This document shows, piece after piece, positions 1,449-63,898 of a stretch of DNA of 64,000 nucleotides (position 1 is the stretch's first letter; each line of letters starts with the position of its first letter). The translations under genes and the position numbers were made by a program. Source of the stretch: Naegleria gruberi (taxonomy: Eukaryota). The notes beneath the pieces are model-generated. The model saw only the letters and a program-made list of their open reading frames with translations, was not told where the DNA came from and ran no database searches. The stretch is from assembly GCA_000004985.1 (NCBI GenBank), contig GG738861.1; one strand, 5' to 3'.

Positions 1449-2159
1449 TTTTTTATATTTTTAATGGAATTTCTAATCTTCAACAAGAATATTTCAACTT
1501 CTTGCACTTTCGATAGATTGTAATGTACATCTTTCTAGTTTGAATCTTAAACTCATAGTTATCATCAAGAATAGTACTTTTGGGGATATGATAGAGTGGT
1601 GTGTAGTGGAGAGTGTGAGATCCATCCAGATCATGCGAAAATCAAAATCGTAGTAGATTCATTGATGATCTTCATCTCTCAGAATACTCAAAATTATTCA
1701 AATTTCATATTTCTCAAAGAAGATAATGCTTTGCAAGATATCCTAAATGAAAAGTTTATTTGAAACTATCCCAAGCAGCCTTCTTCTTGCAATTCTCTTT
1801 ACATCTTTCACCTTAGCTCTCTTGACTTCAAAAATCTTTCCTCCAACTTCAATTTCTTAATCATTGTGCAATAACACATTTATCAACACATTGATTTTGA
1901 AAATTGTGAATTTAGAATGAACAGTATTAAGAGAATTCTTGGATTGAAAACATTTCAATCCTACTTGAAACACTCTAAATTACCTCAATTAACCACCATC
2001 GTTACCACTCAATGTAGTCCATATAAGAACACAAGTGCCATCAAAATAATTATCAATCAAATCAAAATTTATATGAATCAATTCATTAATCATGAAAACA
2101 TCATCAAAATCCAAAATAAATAACCAAAGTTCACTTTAAATTTCCAATCTTCATACGAA

Positions 2160-3037
2160 ATGGTGAACTTTTCAAAGCAAAAAAACATGTCAGCAACTGA
2201 GATGCAACCAAAATCTTATCCCATCTTTGCATTCCTTCGTGACTTTTCCATCACAGGAGGAGTGTATTTTGCCTCGTGTACAATAACAAATCCCATTAGA
2301 GGGGCTGTATTCCACTTGGGAACACAAGACATTTTTTCTGATAAACCAAAATATACAGGAATAATCAATTATCTTGTAAATACTGTTAAGAATAATGGGA
2401 TTAGAGGCTTATGGGCTTTCAATGTTGGAATTTATTTGAGAGAAGTGTCAGGTGTCGCCTTTAACTTTGCTTTTCATGCATCATTCAAGAAAATTCTTCC
2501 ACAATTTTCTCCAGTCAATAATCAATTGGAATACATGTTGATGCAATTCATATCTGGTGGACTAGCAGTTCTTACCACAAGAAGTTTCCAACATCCTCTC
2601 GATTTTTTATCTACTTATGAATATCGTGATCTAAAACCAGGATTTAGAGCTTGCTTTAATGGACTTGGTGATGTAGTATGATTTATGGTGGTTTATATTT
2701 TGGATTATTTGATATTTGGAAAGAAATGAGAAGGAATCAACATTCCTTTGTGGAAAAACTTGGTGTGGCTCATGGAATTTCCCTTATTTCTACAATAGCA
2801 ATTTATCCAGTTGGAATGGCTAAAAGAGAAGCATTTGAAAAAGCACACAACCTTGTATCTCAAAGGAAATTCTATAATGGTACCTTAAAAGAATTATTTA
2901 ACATTGGAAAAGAACAAGGAGTGAAAGGTTTGTTTAGAGGGCTCTCTGGTGGATACCCTATTCTTTCAAGTATTAAACCAGCTTGTACTTTGGTGCTATT
3001 TGATGAAATACGTGGATGGTTATTGAAACAAGAATAG
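2160..3037 (+). CDS. Mitochondrial carrier family (SLC25-like) protein, with the reading frame interrupted near 2676-2681 (apparent +1 frameshift)
   Basis: Two overlapping ORFs (2160..2681 and 2678..3037) together give about 292 aa, the size of one carrier. The end of repeat 2 ('GFRACFNGLGDVV') continues in the other frame as 'IYGGLYFGLFDIWKE'. Repeat 3 follows with the 'PVGMAKRE' signature and '...GLFRG'. No GT-AG intron reconciles the frames without deleting the conserved 'F..YE..K' helix. Confidence 0.6.
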
Positions 3038-3048
3038 AAAATGTATTT

Positions 3049-4172
3049 TTATGGAGATAGTTCATTAATTGTTGTGATGATTTGAATGTCAGTCAGTAAT
3101 TTCCTCAGATAAATATTATACATAGTTGTTATCATTCTATTGGTGATTGGAAGTAAACATGGAGAAATAAAAGGAGTGGTGACATTATCAAAGATTAGTT
3201 CAGTAACTGATCTTACTTCTTCTTCTGAAGTTACATTAACAATATGATAAGAATCGAGATGAAATGAAACTCTTTCCAAATATTCTGTTATGATGGAATT
3301 AATAACTATTCTTTCATTGTAATCATTTGAAATTATTTCCAATTCTGGCCTCACAACTGAATTAATCTTCCTACTATATTCCATTCTTTTCTGCAATTTC
3401 TTTACCAGAATATCTGGCTTTGTAAAGAGAATTACTTTACGAGCATCAGAAAGAAGCCCATTTCCAAACAATTTTCCTATCATTTCCAAAGAATCATTCA
3501 TCACTTCTACATTATTATACTCCACTAAATTAAATTCTGAAAGGGAGACTGTGTAGATCAAAATTTTGATATTTTCAATACAGTAGATCCACTTTCTTCT
3601 TTCAGATCTTCTTCCAAATGCATCAAGAAATTCAACATTTGAATTATTCCAAATAGTTCTATAAGAAGTTATTCCACTGCTTCTCAATTTAATTAATGAG
3701 AAAGGATCAAATATTTTCTTTCTTTCAATTCTTGTGACAAACTCTTCCACATTTTCATATAACATTGCATTCTTAGCCCAGTTTGATTCATAATACTCTT
3801 TAAAGAATGGACAATTCCACAATTTTACCAATAGCCACATGCTGAATCATCTTGTATCCTTTGGATAAAACTTTCGTCAGTAGTTGATTCGAATATATTT
3901 CCCATATCTTCATCAAGATGTTCAACTATTTTTCTTAACTGCTGCTTTGCCTCCTCCTTATCCATCGAGTAATAAATTCGTTCAATAATCCAAAAACTAG
4001 CAAGTTGTAAATTATATTCGAATTTGTCATCATCAAAGTTTCTAATAGTGCATCTTTGAACGGATCGAAAAAAAGTTGATTTACCAGAATGAGATGATCC
4101 CAGTATTAGAACTTTTTGGAGGTTTTTGTCTTCTTTGTTAGCACGCTTGGATTTCGATTTGGATAAACCCAT
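3049..4172 (-). CDS. Heterotrimeric G-protein alpha subunit-like gene, frame-disrupted near 3826-3840 and carrying non-canonical catalytic residues (possible pseudogene)
   Basis: The N-terminal half, 'MGLSKSKSK...KVLILGSSHSGKSTFF', is a myristoylation-type start plus P-loop. The C-terminal half in another frame reads '...RSERRKWIYCIENIKILIYTVSLSEF...KVILFTKPDIL', corresponding to switch II and NKxD. The two halves are out of frame, and I tested for a GT-AG intron of compatible phase and found none. The switch-II motif 'DVGGQ' reads 'DAFGRR' and the NKxD motif reads 'TKPD'. Confidence 0.55.
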
Positions 4173-56617: not shown

Positions 56618-58241
56618 TTACTTTCCAAATATTTTTAATCTTTGAATTTCCAATTGTGATTGAATATGATTTAAATCAGTGTTTTGATCCAAAAGCACTT
56701 TGGTTTGAGTTGAATCATTCATTAGAGTGAAGTGCTCAAATAAAGGTTGTTTTAAAAGGATGGAATCATCCATCTCCGTGTTAAAGGTGTCTGAATTTTC
56801 TTGTGAAATTTTCATAGTATCTGAGAGCACCACAAAAGGAATATTGTAAAATCTGGAAATCGAATAGAGTACGCTTGTGCCAGTCTTGTTAGAAATTACA
56901 ATGTCTCCATGACTATAATGGATTGAATCTGATCCTACACACATAAGATCAACCTTTCCAGAACGTGAGAGTAAAGCAACTGCTGCTTCAGTGCAAACTT
57001 GAACTCTTAGATTTTTGATACCCTGATCTAAGGCAAAGTCCTTCAGAGATTTAGCTGTTTTGTACCCTTCCTTTTCTGGCTGAGACTCTGTACAATAGAT
57101 GGTTAAATCAATGGATGCATGTTTTGCATGTAAGTCTAACATTAAATCTTTCAATGATTTAATAACAACACTGCTCCAACTGTGGGTCAATATTGAGATT
57201 TTCTGGGTGTTATCTTTTAAAAATTCTGATTTCACATAATTTTGAAACTTATTTGATAGTAACTGAGTATTGTTTGATATCTTAATGCCAAATTTGTTCA
57301 ATCTGTCTTTCATTTTCTGTACCATATTTTCAAAAGTTTGTTCAGAAATTTGTTTGACAATACTATCCTGATCAAATTGTAATTCACCATTCATTATTTC
57401 TACAAGAGATTGAACAGCCACATTCCTAATCATTGGCATTTCAATTCTACATTGATCTAAAATCCAAACAATGTCTCTCAGTTTCGAAGTTAAAAAAACA
57501 GCTCTCATGCTATCCATATCTATTGAAGAATTCATCAATTTGAAATAATCTGGTATATCTTCAGATGAAAATAAGTTCAAGGCCTTTTTCATAATATCTA
57601 TCGTTTTCAAAGCAATGGTAGTTGCACCATCTGTAAAATTATTAACAATGGTATTGTCTATTTCTACCAATAATTCAGTCTCCAATCCATAGAAAAAGTA
57701 TAATCTGTGAAGAGTGTCTCTTAGATTGGGAACTGTTTCATGTAGGGTGGGAGTGGTGCTGTCATTCATACCCTTCCTCAGAAATTGCTCAGTATCAAAA
57801 ACATTGAATGAATCGTGTTCCCAATCAATCTTGAATCCTAAATTATCAAGTTGGCTAGGGATATCTTTTGAATTTTCTACTGACAATCTAAATAGAAAAG
57901 GATAAACAATAAATCCCTTTCCATTATTTAAAGGCAAATATTGTGGACGACCACTTCGGATGAAGTTCAAATGTTTTCCAACTTGTAATTGTGTTTCTTC
58001 TTGGATTTCTCTGAAGGCACTCCATCGGGCTTTCCACAAAATAATCACCAACCCTATAATCAAACCGATCATTTGAAGAATAATCCACAGGTGGATTGTT
58101 AACCAAGTCAATAGAACCAGAAATTGAAGCCCACATTTTCGGATAAGAATTAACCTTCTCCGATCTTTTAAATAGTAGAATATGTGATTTTTCTTCCTTT
58201 ATCACTTCAATAAAGCCAGTGGCTACTCTTCTCCATTTCAT
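56618..58241 (-). CDS. Nudix hydrolase domain fused to an eIF-2B / methylthioribose-1-phosphate-isomerase-like (IF-2B family) domain; the reading frame switches once near 58060-58115 (unannotated intron or frameshift)
   Basis: The upstream ORF (58241..57924) reads 'MKWRRVATGFIEVIKEEKSHILLFKRSEKVNSYPKMWASISGSID', which looks like Nudix beta-strands and the 'W.lPGG' region. The Nudix box continues in the other frame as '...AFREIQEETQLQVG'. Downstream, '...ILTHSWSSVV...IYCTESQPEKEGYKTAKSL...MCVGSDSIHYSHGDIVISNKTGTSVLYSISRFYNIPFVVLSDTMKI' aligns to the IF-2B-family core 'VLTHCNTG...ETRP.lQG.RLTa.EL...GADRv.aNGDtaNKIGTy.lA..A....IPFyV'. A candidate 46- or 55-nt intron with a GTTTGA donor would join the frames. 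Confidence 0.55.
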
Positions 58242-58810: not shown

Positions 58811-59293
58811 ATGGAATACCAACCTTTGAATCAACAAACCAAATACGATCCAAATCAAGTCTACCAACAACCACAACAAGTACCACCTCAAAATGTAGTC
58901 TACTCCCAGCAACCAATTTATACTCAAGAACAACAATATTATGCTTCAACACAACCTATTTATCAACAATCCCATGTTGTGACAACCACCACACAAGGAG
59001 ATGTTGATTATTTGGAAAAGCAAAAGCAAGATCAAACTTCCATGATGTTGTTTATTATTGGTTTCTTTGTTGGTATTGTGTGGATTGTTAACTTTATTCT
59101 CGTAAGTTATTATTATTTGCTTTTTAATTTAACATGTATTATTATTAAATAGCATCGTAATTCACCAAGTGAATCCGCAAGAAAGTTTGCCAAGGCTTCA
59201 ATTATTTGTTTTGCTTTGAGCTTTGTTTTTGCTGCTGTTGCTGTTGGTATTTATTTGATTGTCTTTTTCTCCATCTTCCAATCTGCTTATTAA
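58811..59293 (+). CDS. CD225/dispanin-like two-TM protein with a Q/Y/P-rich N-terminus; two exons
   Basis: Exon 1 is 58811..59101. The intron is 59102..59152 (51 nt, GTAAGT...AAATAG), in phase 0. Exon 2 is 59153..59293. The spliced product is Q/Y/P-rich, then TM1 'MMLFIIGFFVGIVWIVNFIL', then the loop 'HRNSPSESARKFAKAS', then TM2 'IICFALSFVFAAVAVGIYLIVFF', ending SIFQSAY*. This is the dispanin topology and loop signature. Confidence 0.55.
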
Positions 59294-59547: not shown

Positions 59548-61332
59548 ATGCCATCACAAGATAATACAGAACAAACAAGCTTTTCCTTCAGAGTGCGGGT
59601 TGCTGACAATGCCAAAGTTAAAGAAGAAAAGTTCATCGTGGTTGATTCTCAGAAATTACCAAAGAGCATTGATGAATTATTCAAATTGGGAAAAGCCAAA
59701 TTAAATTTAAAGAAGAAGGTGCTTGCACTTTATAATGGAAAATCAGGACAAGTCATTGAATCGGATAGTATTATTCAAAAGTTATTCAATGATTTTACAA
59801 CAGCTAAGAGAAAACAATTACAGGAAGAACAATTAATTGGATCAACAGGATTAGGATCAAAGCCTTCCGATGATTTATTCTTTGTTTTTTCGACCAATTT
59901 AAAACAAACTTTCCAAGGAAAGATTACGCAACCAGTTGAATCGAGTGACAATAATACAACAACATCTTCATCATCAGTTGAAAAGACACCAGAAGTAGTT
60001 GTCTTGATAAAGGACAGTTGGTTGGATGATGGAGCTATTAAACAATTGCAAGATACTGCTCGTACATTGAAATGTGTAAGAAGAGCCACTGGTCAACCTG
60101 ACCTTCATCCAGGTAAAACATTCCCAGTAGGAGCTGCCATTTCAACTGTAGATTACATCTACCCACCACTCGTTGGTAATGATATTGGGTGTGGTATGAG
60201 TTTGTATCAAACTAATTTAACATCAGATAGAGGATTGAAACAATTAGAAAAATGGGTGAAACAACTCAACGGATTAGAAAGAGGAGGAATTAGCGGCGAT
60301 GAAAGTAGACCTGTATTGGATGTTGAAAGAAAATTCTTTGGATTGGATTCTAGTGAGGATTTGCTTTCAGCCACATCTACTAACTCTGAAAATGTAGATT
60401 TTGAATTACATGAAGCCACAACTGAATTTATTGAAAAATATTTAACCTATTTTGATGTAGATTTGGGTCAACTCCAAGAAGTTACTCCAAATCTTGAATC
60501 GGAAGAGGGTGTTACCTCTCCGCCAAAGAGTGAAAATAAGGCCTTGGAATTTGCCATTCGTCAACTTGGTACTGTCGGAGGTGGAAATCACTTTGCAGAG
60601 CTTCAAATCGTCGAAAAGATTTGTAATGAAAAGATTTTTGAAGAAGAATTGAAACTTTCAAAGGATGCTTGCTTTTTGATGGTTCATAGTGGATCAAGAT
60701 CCCTTGGTGATCATATTCTTGGAGAACATGAGGATAAATTTGGAAATAGTGGCTTGCTTTTTGACTCGGATGATGCAAAGCACTATATGAAATGTCACGA
60801 CAATGCTTGTAGATGGGCAAAGGCCAACAGAGCTCTCATTGCCAGAAAGTTCCTTACTTGCATTAACGGAAATGGTAAAATGATTCTTGACATTTGCCAC
60901 AACAATGTTGTAGAAAAACAAGTTGAAAATGAAAGAGTTTTCATTCACAGAAAGGGTGCTGCACCAACAGATGCTGGTTACTTCTGCATTCCTGGTTCGA
61001 GAGGATCATTCTCCTATCTTGTTCGTGGACGTGAAGAAGATATTGAAAGCCAAATTCGTTGTAATTTTTCAGCTGCACACGGTGCTGGCAGAAAATGGAA
61101 GCGTTCCAAATCAGTTGGTATGGCCGCAAAGGAAAATGTTCAATCCTTCACAGTTACTGACCTCGGATCTCATGTCATTTGTGAAGATAAGAATTTACTT
61201 TTTGAAGAACAACCTGCTGCTTACAAGGATATCGATGCAGTCATTTCAGATTTAGTTCATTTTGGGGTTGTTGAAGTTGTTGCCATTATGAGACCACTCA
61301 TTACCTACAAGATGAGAAACTGTTGCCATTAA
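59548..61332 (+). CDS. RtcB-family RNA 3'-phosphate ligase-like protein with an about 170-aa N-terminal extension (divergent from the canonical eukaryotic HSPC117-type RtcB)
   Basis: RtcB signatures are present: 'QPDLHPGKTFPVGAAIS...VGNDIGCGMSLY', 'GTVGGGNHFAELQ', 'IHRKGAAPT', 'IPGSRGSFSYLVRG' and 'SAAHGAGRKWKRS'. The N-terminal about 170 aa ('FRVRVADNAKVKEEKFIVVDSQKLPKSIDELFKLGKAKLNL...') is extra. Confidence 0.65.
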   Translation: MPSQDNTEQTSFSFRVRVADNAKVKEEKFIVVDSQKLPKSIDELFKLGKAKLNLKKKVLALYNGKSGQVIESDSIIQKLFNDFTTAKRKQLQEEQLIGSTGLGSKPSDDLFFVFSTNLKQTFQGKITQPVESSDNNTTTSSSSVEKTPEVVVLIKDSWLDDGAIKQLQDTARTLKCVRRATGQPDLHPGKTFPVGAAISTVDYIYPPLVGNDIGCGMSLYQTNLTSDRGLKQLEKWVKQLNGLERGGISGDESRPVLDVERKFFGLDSSEDLLSATSTNSENVDFELHEATTEFIEKYLTYFDVDLGQLQEVTPNLESEEGVTSPPKSENKALEFAIRQLGTVGGGNHFAELQIVEKICNEKIFEEELKLSKDACFLMVHSGSRSLGDHILGEHEDKFGNSGLLFDSDDAKHYMKCHDNACRWAKANRALIARKFLTCINGNGKMILDICHNNVVEKQVENERVFIHRKGAAPTDAGYFCIPGSRGSFSYLVRGREEDIESQIRCNFSAAHGAGRKWKRSKSVGMAAKENVQSFTVTDLGSHVICEDKNLLFEEQPAAYKDIDAVISDLVHFGVVEVVAIMRPLITYKMRNCCH

Positions 61333-62956: not shown

Positions 62957-63898
62957 ATGGAAACATTACAAGATGAGTGGATTATTATTTGTTCTTTTAT
63001 GAATGTTAGAAGTTTATTAAATTTTCAATTGGCATGCAGGGATTTCTATCGGATTGGATCTTGTGATATCATATGGAAGAGTATTTATCAATATTATTGG
63101 AAAAGTTGGTCATCAGATTTGCATCCGAATCAAAATATAAAGTTTGGATTGTGTGGTCATCTCTCCATCATTAACAAGGAAATGCCAACAGAAAATTACA
63201 AATATCATGTGATGGGAGTGTATGAATTGCAACATTTAAGAACGGATGGGAAGATTAAATTTCAAAAATATGAGTCAATACTGAAAAAACCACTTGATGA
63301 AATGCATTCGAAAGTGACTCACATGAAGATATCAATTTTAGGAGAAGGAAATGGAGTCACATCTCTGTTGATGAGATTGAAATTAGGAGCATTCCCACAA
63401 ACAGCATTAAATATTGGAAGTCTGCCGGCTATGGAAACCTTTAGGCATGAAACTGTAAAAGAAGGAAGAAAATTCTCAATTGATTTCATTGACCTTTCAG
63501 ATATTGGATATTCACGATTAATGCCATTGCTTTTGTATGGTTGTGATCTTTTCGTTCCAACATTTTCTCTCAATAATGCGCATTCTTCATTTGAAAGAGT
63601 TGAGATCAAGTGGATCCCAACAATTGAACATTACATGTGCAATGCACCAATTATAATATTGGGAACGAAACTAGATGAAAAAAGTAATACACACGTTATT
63701 ACAGAGAAGAAGTTATCACAACAGTCTAATTGTATCACTTATTATGAAATATCAGCACTCACAGCAGATGATGACCAAATGAATCAATTTGTTGAGCTAT
63801 GTGTCAAATCTGTTCTCATGACTCACAAACCAATAATAACAAGTGAGAACAGCTTTGCAACAACTTTTGGAAAACCAAAAAAATGTTTCCTTCAATAG
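62957..63898 (+). CDS. F-box-like N-terminus fused to a degenerate Ras-superfamily small-GTPase-like domain (313 aa)
   Basis: The F-box-like segment is 'WIIICSFMNVRSLLNFQLACRDFYRIGSCDIIWKSI'. The G1-like 'KISILGEGNGVTSLLM' lacks the P-loop Lys/Ser. The G4 motif 'ILGTKLDE' (N/TKxD) is retained. The later part resembles a Rho/Ras fold ('ISALTADDDQMNQFVELCVKSVL'). Confidence 0.45.
   Translation: METLQDEWIIICSFMNVRSLLNFQLACRDFYRIGSCDIIWKSIYQYYWKSWSSDLHPNQNIKFGLCGHLSIINKEMPTENYKYHVMGVYELQHLRTDGKIKFQKYESILKKPLDEMHSKVTHMKISILGEGNGVTSLLMRLKLGAFPQTALNIGSLPAMETFRHETVKEGRKFSIDFIDLSDIGYSRLMPLLLYGCDLFVPTFSLNNAHSSFERVEIKWIPTIEHYMCNAPIIILGTKLDEKSNTHVITEKKLSQQSNCITYYEISALTADDDQMNQFVELCVKSVLMTHKPIITSENSFATTFGKPKKCFLQ

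Follow-up and report, generated by a model that had tools for sequence, protein, structure and literature searches.

A predicted RtcB2-type RNA ligase of Naegleria gruberi carries a beta-grasp module that recurs on other putative RNA-repair enzymes

We analyzed a 64,000-nucleotide stretch of the Naegleria gruberi genome (GenBank assembly GCA_000004985.1, contig GG738861.1), hereafter the window, in which a gene on the plus strand (59,548 to 61,332) encodes a protein of the RtcB family of RNA ligases. We found that this protein is predicted to be an intact ligase of the RtcB2 class, the type that is coupled to PrfH in bacteria, and that it begins with a conserved beta-grasp module that is also attached to other enzymes, most of them with domains for healing or sealing RNA ends. 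The explanation that we favor for the whole, and rate as somewhat better than an even bet, is that this RtcB2 ligase, with the module as its adaptor, repairs small-subunit ribosomal RNA (rRNA) in the cytosol. The parts of this explanation do not stand equally firm: we are highly confident that the protein is an active RtcB2-family ligase other than the splicing enzyme, we regard repair of the rRNA decoding center, an analogy with the bacterial enzyme, as about evenly balanced, and we propose the adaptor role of the module, an analogy with related domains, only tentatively. The coding sequence (NAEGRDRAFT_66252) is complete and occupies a single exon: its open reading frame (ORF) is unbroken, starts in the ORF list at the first ATG past an in-frame stop, and specifies 594 amino acids plus a stop codon. 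The product is identical over its full length (100%) to the N. gruberi predicted protein EFC45815.1 (XP_002678559.1; UniProt D2VBK9).

The ligase core (residues 147 to 594; 59,986 to 61,329, plus strand) was assigned to the RtcB2-type 3'-phosphate/5'-hydroxyl RNA ligases from Pfam, NCBIfam, Foldseek, and an alignment with bacterial proteins. The Pfam RtcB family (PF01139) matches residues 166 to 588 with 263.8 bits (E 4.5e-78; cut-off 27) and is covered from position 1 to position 425 of 426, and Foldseek aligns the predicted structure with solved RtcBs at an E value of 1e-28 and 20 to 24% identity. Both models built for "release-factor-H-coupled" RtcBs score above their curated cut-offs (NF007153, 415.9 bits against 407; TIGR03073 release_rtcB, 367.1 bits against 271.8). 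We searched 5.8 billion proteins for homologs and examined the best 120: outside a small eukaryotic group, those listed were bacterial proteins of about 375 residues scoring 330 to 360 bits, many of them named "release factor H-coupled RctB family protein", and no canonical RTCB was among the 120. Solved canonical RtcBs (human, zebrafish, Pyrococcus, and Thermus) score 79 to 108 bits, with human and zebrafish RTCB at the bottom of that range (79 to 80 bits, 20 to 22% identity). Thus, the Naegleria ligase has its fold and catalytic residues in common with canonical RTCB/HSPC117 (about 505 residues) and with archaeal RtcB (Protein Data Bank entries 7p3b, 8odo, and 4dwq), whereas its core is about 100 residues shorter, belongs to a different subfamily, and is only 20 to 24% identical to them at those same scores. 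With bacterial RtcB2 (Escherichia coli ATCC 25922; NF007153/TIGR03073) it shares the subfamily, the compact core of about 375 residues, the active-site motifs, and about 46% identity.

To place the protein by genomic context, we retrieved 80 bacterial loci that encode relatives, scored each with a hidden Markov model (HMM) of the core, and checked each for a PrfH homolog on the same strand. The loci fell into two score groups. Such a homolog was present at 32 of the 35 loci scoring 301 to 552 bits, in 29 cases abutting or overlapping the rtcB stop codon, and at only 1 of the 45 loci scoring 156 to 216 bits. A check of three downstream ORFs with TIGR03072 identified each as PrfH (196 to 317 bits; cut-off 166.65). 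Identity of the Naegleria core is 45.9% with the high-scoring, PrfH-linked group and 31.8% with representatives of the low-scoring group. Because both its identity and the score groups side with the PrfH-linked loci, we take the Naegleria protein to be an RtcB2 as Tian et al. (2022) use the term, and conclude that its core belongs, as judged from sequence, to the RtcB2 subfamily rather than being a drifted HSPC117. The earlier note on this DNA had suggested a bacterial-type RtcB, and this is borne out by the two curated cut-offs and by scores of about 350 bits to RtcB2 compared to 79 to 108 bits to canonical proteins. Its description of the protein as only loosely similar to RtcBs outside the signature motifs holds against canonical HSPC117 and fails against RtcB2, for which a core identity of about 46% is typical.

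Two bacterial loci gave the highest core-HMM scores, with a model that is eukaryote-weighted: L005 (Pyxidicoccus sp.; rtcB at about 1914 to 3068) with 503 bits and L006 (a metagenome-assembled genome of an uncultured proteobacterium; rtcB at about 2938 to 4098) with 552 bits, the best segment of the latter being 50% identical. Both lack an adjacent prfH, which 32 of the 35 high-scoring loci possess. Perhaps the lineage that donated the eukaryotic genes is a near relative of these two; alternatively, both may be a bacterial variant that does not depend on PrfH.

The Naegleria ligase departs from bacterial RtcB2 in being monocistronic, in carrying a 146-residue N-terminal module plus linker, and in an acidic insertion at residues 245 to 335. 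We searched the 64,000-nucleotide window for a PrfH homolog, a second copy of the module, and another RtcB, and found none of them. The ligase is thus an RtcB2 by sequence family, yet stands outside any RtcB2–PrfH system, with no prfH operon partner in the window.

Assignment of active-site residues was made from HMMER alignments to solved RtcBs, with Pyrococcus RtcB as the reference; all motifs lie on the plus strand. DIGCGM (residues 212 to 217; 60,181 to 60,198) supplies the predicted metal ligands Asp212 and Cys215, which align to D95 and C98 of Pyrococcus RtcB, and GGGNHF (residues 344 to 349; 60,577 to 60,594) supplies the active-site residues Asn347 and His348 (GTP and metal), which align to N202 and H203. 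Two further metal ligands are His380 in HSGSR (residues 380 to 384; 60,685 to 60,699), aligned to H234, and His451 in CHNN (residues 450 to 453; 60,895 to 60,906), aligned to H329. The guanine-nucleotide-binding motif HRKGA (residues 467 to 471; 60,946 to 60,960) aligns with the HRKGA of solved RtcBs, and His511 in HGAGR (residues 511 to 515; 61,078 to 61,092), the predicted site of covalent guanylylation, aligns to H404. An alignment of 16 sequences from eukaryotic and bacterial relatives shows no variation at D212, C215, N347, H348, H380, H451, H467–A471, or H511. The earlier note had listed DIGCGM, GGGNHF, HRKGA, and HGAGR as retained metal- and GMP-binding signatures; all four are indeed present, as are HSGSR and CHNN. 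We conclude that the core is that of an intact RtcB2-class RNA ligase that is predicted to be catalytically competent.

The core is acidic overall (isoelectric point, pI, 5.5) and contains an acidic, partly disordered expansion (residues 245 to 335; 60,280 to 60,552, plus strand; pI 4.1), in which the AlphaFold2 confidence score (predicted local distance difference test, pLDDT) drops to 53 to 65 in places. This expansion is gapped in bacterial and most eukaryotic homologs, greatest in three Naegleria species, and reduced in Willaertia. At the extreme C terminus (residues 591 to 594; 61,318 to 61,329), the orthologs of the three Naegleria species end with a Cys-Cys pair (NCCH, SCCYE, and SCCHE), which no other homolog has. 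We considered a C-terminal prenylation signal for this ending and rejected it: the sequence is not a CaaX box, and it is confined to Naegleria species.

The segment that precedes the core is about 146 residues long, since the alignment with bacterial RtcB2s begins at about residue 147; the earlier note had put it at about 170. It comprises three parts, all encoded on the plus strand. An acidic, disordered tail (residues 1 to 12; 59,548 to 59,583; pI 4.1, no Lys or Arg; pLDDT below 50 at residues 1 to 8) is followed by a basic beta-grasp module of the CIDE-N/PB1/DCX/KHA class (residues 13 to 124; 59,584 to 59,919; pI 9.7; topology beta-beta-alpha-beta-(alpha)-beta) and then by a disordered linker rich in Ser, Thr, and Asn (residues 125 to 146; 59,920 to 59,985; pLDDT below 50 at residues 127 to 144) that differs in length and sequence among orthologs. 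The tail does not resemble a mitochondrial presequence, and the first strand lies within about 5 residues of Met1 in most orthologs. Inside the beta-grasp fold is an insertion (residues 73 to 110; 59,764 to 59,877), made up of a helix (73 to 96) and a disordered loop (pLDDT below 50 at 99 to 107), that two alignments confine to the three Naegleria species. AlphaFold2 modeled the full protein with a mean pLDDT of 83.2 and the module alone with 86.8, and the 16 best Foldseek matches of the module in the Protein Data Bank are all CIDE-N, doublecortin, or PB1 domains. The beginning of the protein had been described in the earlier note as ubiquitin-like or beta-grasp-looking on the strength of a quoted peptide; the peptide is there, and the confident model and its structural matches support that description.

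The CIDE-N, PB1, DCX, and KHA domains, which form part of the ubiquitin-like clan of Pfam, have the beta-beta-alpha-beta-beta topology of the beta-grasp fold in common with the module. CIDE-N and PB1 domains act through head-to-tail contacts, either homotypic or heterotypic. The module differs from all four in its own signature, R..L..N ... A[KR]NKL[RK]LKK ... G.E ... S.GE.F.G, and in the set of domains that accompany it, namely RNA ligases and end-healing enzymes. Conservation within the module is strongest at R15, N21, K51, L52, K55, G67, S115, and F122. When we scanned 12 members against Pfam, they gave matches below threshold to DCX2_DCDC1 (5 of 12, best E 1.2e-4), KHA (5 of 12), and CIDE-N (4 of 12, best E 0.008).

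This architecture extends well beyond N. gruberi. The module is joined to an RtcB2 core in the heteroloboseans N. fowleri, N. lovaniensis, Willaertia magna, and Acrasis kona (in whose record the first strands of the module are missing), in the fungi Chytriomyces, Siphonaria, Phlyctochytrium, Hyaloraphidium, Actinomortierella, Linnemannia, and Discina, and in the protists Nuclearia and Aplanochytrium, the rotifer Didymodactylos, and the alga Bryopsis. Among 150 full-length cores, 43 carry the module, the remaining 107 are short bacterial-type proteins without it, and no other kind of long N terminus occurs. The N-terminal domain had been taken to be novel to this protein, which does not hold: the same module is found on all 43 full-length eukaryotic-type RtcB2s that we examined. 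A neighbor-joining tree built from the core unites 42 of the 43 fusions in one clade that is free of bacterial members (21% bootstrap support). Mean core identity is 45.1% when eukaryotic fusions are compared with one another and nearly the same, 44.3%, when eukaryotic proteins are compared with bacterial ones, and no core column discriminates eukaryotic from bacterial RtcB2 at a threshold of 80%/80%. The catalytic core thus appears, at the level of sequence, functionally unchanged from that of bacterial RtcB2, and because the core offers neither higher identity nor discriminating columns, the shared domain fusion is the best evidence for a single origin. Two of the fusions may be arranged differently: in a Phlyctochytrium bullatum protein of 946 residues (P0236), about 430 uncharacterized residues precede the module, which may therefore not be N-terminal, and in a 671-residue EukProt transcript product (P0264), about 200 uncharacterized residues separate the module profile match (residues 1 to 74) from the RtcB core (from about residue 276).

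To find the module on other proteins, we ran an exhaustive HMMER search with its profile against 1.84 billion cluster representatives, which returned 162 proteins at E ≤1e-3. We classified 152 (150 listed and 2 known beforehand) as proteins with an RtcB core (52), short proteins or fragments (78), and longer proteins without RtcB (22, of which Pfam scans covered 20). Word-indexed profile searches for the module, with E values up to 10, had returned only 2 and 8 short fragments and no named multidomain partners; one protein from such a search (P0293, Linnemannia) is a truncated RtcB2 fusion. The matches of the exhaustive search include a group from the wider family, namely DCDC1-type doublecortin-repeat proteins and a RasGAP. 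The module is further tied to the KHA family (profile E 5.7e-13), because residues 24 to 86 of one protein (P0127) score 59.9 bits to Pfam KHA.

A second group carries the module with its specific signature (vRv.L..N ... A[KR]NKL[RK]LKK ... G.E ... S.GE.F.G) attached to other enzymes. In P0230 (1739 residues), it stands at the N terminus of a protein with a T4 Rnl1-type RNA ligase, a 3'-5' exonuclease, R3H, an AAA_33 kinase, and Prim-Pol, and in P0246 (1466 residues), it likewise precedes an Rnl1-type ligase of the T4 kind, a 3'-5' exonuclease, and R3H. Judged by their domains, these two proteins look like eukaryotic RNA-repair machines built as a single chain. Other members combine the module with an Rnl1-type ligase with or without an AAA_33 kinase (P0250 and P0257), with a 2H phosphoesterase plus an EEP nuclease/phosphatase (P0169), with NADAR (P0235), with dual-specificity phosphatase-like domains (P0219 and P0238), or with an N-terminal methyltransferase-like enzyme (P0229). 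The partner domains of this group are mostly classic RNA end-healing or end-sealing activities. Our literature searches found neither the module nor its recurrence on RNA-repair enzymes described, within incomplete coverage that leaves an earlier description possible. The ligase gene itself was already annotated and was listed in 2015, and its class was noted in 2022; the conserved module on RNA-repair enzymes appears to be undescribed.

The proposed function starts from what has been published on bacterial RtcB2, for which we draw on selected passages of Tian et al. (2022; PMC9304027). According to these passages, E. coli RtcB2 (EcRtcB2) mends 30S subunits in which colicin E3 or CdiA-CT has severed the 16S rRNA between A1493 and G1494, does not repair tRNA, and has a substrate range that is mutually exclusive with that of EcRtcB1, while PrfH, reported there from bacteria only, frees the peptide from damaged 70S ribosomes before RtcB2 acts. 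A 2026 study (PMC13166195) reported that RtcB2 alone can mend cleaved 30S and 70S particles and, when overexpressed, rescue growth, and that PrfH speeds the repair. The passages of Tian et al. also count 98 eukaryotic RtcB2s, mostly from fungi and plants, and predict that they repair the 40S subunit. The Naegleria ligase is one of that class and falls under the same hypothesis of 40S repair without PrfH, so the idea of a repair-type RtcB2 in eukaryotes is already in print. Those passages mention neither Naegleria or Heterolobosea nor a conserved N-terminal domain.

We propose that the RtcB2 class passed from bacteria, where it is encoded beside PrfH and mends 16S rRNA that toxins of the colicin E3 type have cut in the decoding center, into eukaryotes, where the Naegleria ligase would act without an operon partner. 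Its chemistry would presumably be that of bacterial RtcB2, and its class of substrate, by analogy, probably so too. If it follows family chemistry, the enzyme would depend on GTP and Mn2+: His511 would be guanylylated, GMP would be moved to an RNA 3'-phosphate (or 2',3'-cyclic phosphate), and attack by a 5'-hydroxyl would seal the break. By analogy with EcRtcB2, and in line with the prediction of Tian et al., the preferred substrate may be small-subunit rRNA with a cut in its decoding center, which is universally conserved. The basic module on its flexible linker may dock the ligase either on ribosomes that have been damaged or on other repair enzymes with which it partners, and so stand in for coupling by PrfH. 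We place the enzyme in the cytosol because the folded module begins about 12 residues past Met1 and the tail before it is acidic. More broadly, the module could be a dedicated eukaryotic RNA-repair adaptor that builds RtcB2, Rnl1 plus kinase, 2H, NADAR, and phosphatases into a damage complex by head-to-tail contacts of the CIDE-N/PB1 kind, or docks them on stalled, toxin-damaged 80S ribosomes, and so replaces coupling by PrfH; this wider proposal is speculative, and we regard it as doubtful.

Several points weigh against repair of small-subunit rRNA by an adaptor-guided RtcB2. The substrate is extrapolated from a single characterized enzyme, that of E. coli, at about 45% identity, and in the passages of Tian et al. 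no eukaryotic equivalent is known of a ribotoxin that cuts the decoding center in vivo. The adaptor role draws solely on the activities of related beta-grasp domains. The module reaches no Pfam gathering cut-off (KHA, 14.2 to 16.9 bits against 29.6), so it is best treated as a distinct subfamily of the CIDE-N/PB1/DCX/KHA class. The module-bearing Rnl1, 2H, and NADAR proteins come from metagenomic or Logan contigs, and none is tied to Naegleria. Finally, bootstrap support for a single eukaryotic origin of the fusion is low. The ligase could instead be a general-purpose cytosolic enzyme for cleaved tRNAs, mRNAs, and other RNAs with 3'-phosphate or 2',3'-cyclic phosphate and 5'-hydroxyl ends, linked by its module to end-healing enzymes. 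The occurrence of the module on Rnl1-type ligases, polynucleotide-kinase-like AAA_33 proteins, a 2H phosphoesterase, and NADAR, all typical of tRNA or general RNA healing, speaks for this, and so does the unusually large set of RNA ligases in N. gruberi, which suggests specialization across types of damage (PMC4408790). We nevertheless consider it unlikely: the mutually exclusive substrates of EcRtcB2 and EcRtcB1 and the lack of tRNA repair by RtcB2 argue against it, as does a eukaryotic core that shows no systematic divergence from bacterial RtcB2 (44 to 45% identity in both comparisons).

That the protein is instead the tRNA-splicing and unconventional-mRNA-splicing ligase of Naegleria, equivalent to HSPC117/RTCB, would fit an RtcB with a complete active site, and some homolog records are named "tRNA-splicing ligase". 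We judge this quite improbable, given that the protein falls in the PrfH-coupled subfamily rather than in the archaeal/metazoan clade (79 to 108 bits to canonical proteins compared to about 350 to RtcB2), that fungi, whose tRNA splicing relies on Trl1 (in the passages of Tian et al.), are numerous among carriers of the fusion, and that N. gruberi has a second RtcB. Unciuleac and Shuman (2015; PMC4408790) listed two RtcB-family proteins for N. gruberi, the present ligase and EFC42397.1, and in a 2025 phylogeny (PMC12699882) a Naegleria RtcB falls in the clade of EcRtcB1 and kinetoplastid proteins; the subfamily of EFC42397.1 rests on this published placement of a Naegleria RtcB. The suggestion in the earlier note that the present ligase is a second RtcB accordingly stands, since it is neither the only one listed nor grouped with HSPC117; the note's further idea, that the enzyme may serve RNA repair and not tRNA splicing, draws on family membership. 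A mitochondrial enzyme that kept an ancestral 16S-type substrate and repairs the bacterial-type small-subunit rRNA of the organelle would be in keeping with a substrate that was originally bacterial 16S rRNA in 30S subunits and with the bacterial descent of mitochondrial ribosomes. It is a very remote prospect, because there is no space for a presequence: the fold begins at about residue 13 after a 12-residue acidic tail without Lys or Arg, and in most orthologs the first strand starts 2 to 5 residues past Met1. Only marginally better are the chances that the module is genuinely of the doublecortin type and, by binding tubulin, ties the ligase to microtubules, a role against which we count that CIDE-N and PB1 outscore DCX in the structural comparison and that the A[KR]NKL[RK]LKK ... 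S.GE.F.G signature is common to RNA-repair enzymes and not to cytoskeletal proteins. Lastly, the nearest noneukaryotic relatives of the ligase are bacterial, as would be expected if the gene were a bacterial contaminant, a recent nonfunctional insertion, or a pseudogene. We give this virtually no credence and ruled it out from composition, flanking genes, and heterolobosean orthologs: the 594-residue frame is intact with all catalytic residues kept, the G+C content at the gene (31 to 38%) is similar to that of the remaining window, the neighboring genes are eukaryotic, and the same architecture is found in the N. fowleri, N. lovaniensis, Willaertia, and Acrasis orthologs at 44 to 64% identity.

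The genes that flank the ligase gene are unrelated to it and encode IF-2B-family, GcvT, and F-box plus Ras proteins. On the minus strand, in the region from 56,618 to 58,241, a 497-residue ORF carries an IF-2B-family domain of the eIF2B/methylthioribose-1-phosphate isomerase type and, at its start, a Nudix-box-like sequence (REIQEETQL). It is overlapped in a different frame by a 105-residue ORF (57,924 to 58,241) that resembles the first half of a Nudix domain, and the two are probably one gene, interrupted by a small intron, in which Nudix and IF-2B are fused. Directly upstream of the ligase gene, a 113-residue ORF (58,811 to 59,152, plus strand) has no Pfam match; its N-terminal half is rich in Gln, Pro, and Tyr, and its C-terminal segment is hydrophobic. 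A 313-residue ORF (62,957 to 63,898, plus strand) contains an F-box-like motif at residues 11 to 45 (E 3.8e-4, under the Pfam cut-off) and a Ras-family GTPase domain at residues 125 to 281, which is an unusual pairing.

Repair of ribosomes by RtcB2 and PrfH is a recent discovery in bacteria. The present finding overturns nothing. Were the adaptor reading true, it would answer the question raised by Tian et al. of how a eukaryotic RtcB2 reaches a damaged decoding center without PrfH, and the module is a candidate, open to test, for the device that would couple or target the ligase in eukaryotes that lack PrfH. Within N. gruberi, the ligase belongs to an unusually large putative repair repertoire that also includes NgrRnl/Rnl5, seven Rnl1-type, and five Rnl2-type ligases (PMC4408790); those enzymes are ATP-dependent and act on 3'-hydroxyl and 5'-phosphate ends, whereas the class of the present ligase is GTP-dependent and acts on 3'-phosphate and 5'-hydroxyl ends. 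As a bacterivore with an exceptionally large repertoire of RNA ligases and with genetics that are becoming tractable, Naegleria would be reasonably well suited to studies of whether eukaryotes repair toxin-cut ribosomes.

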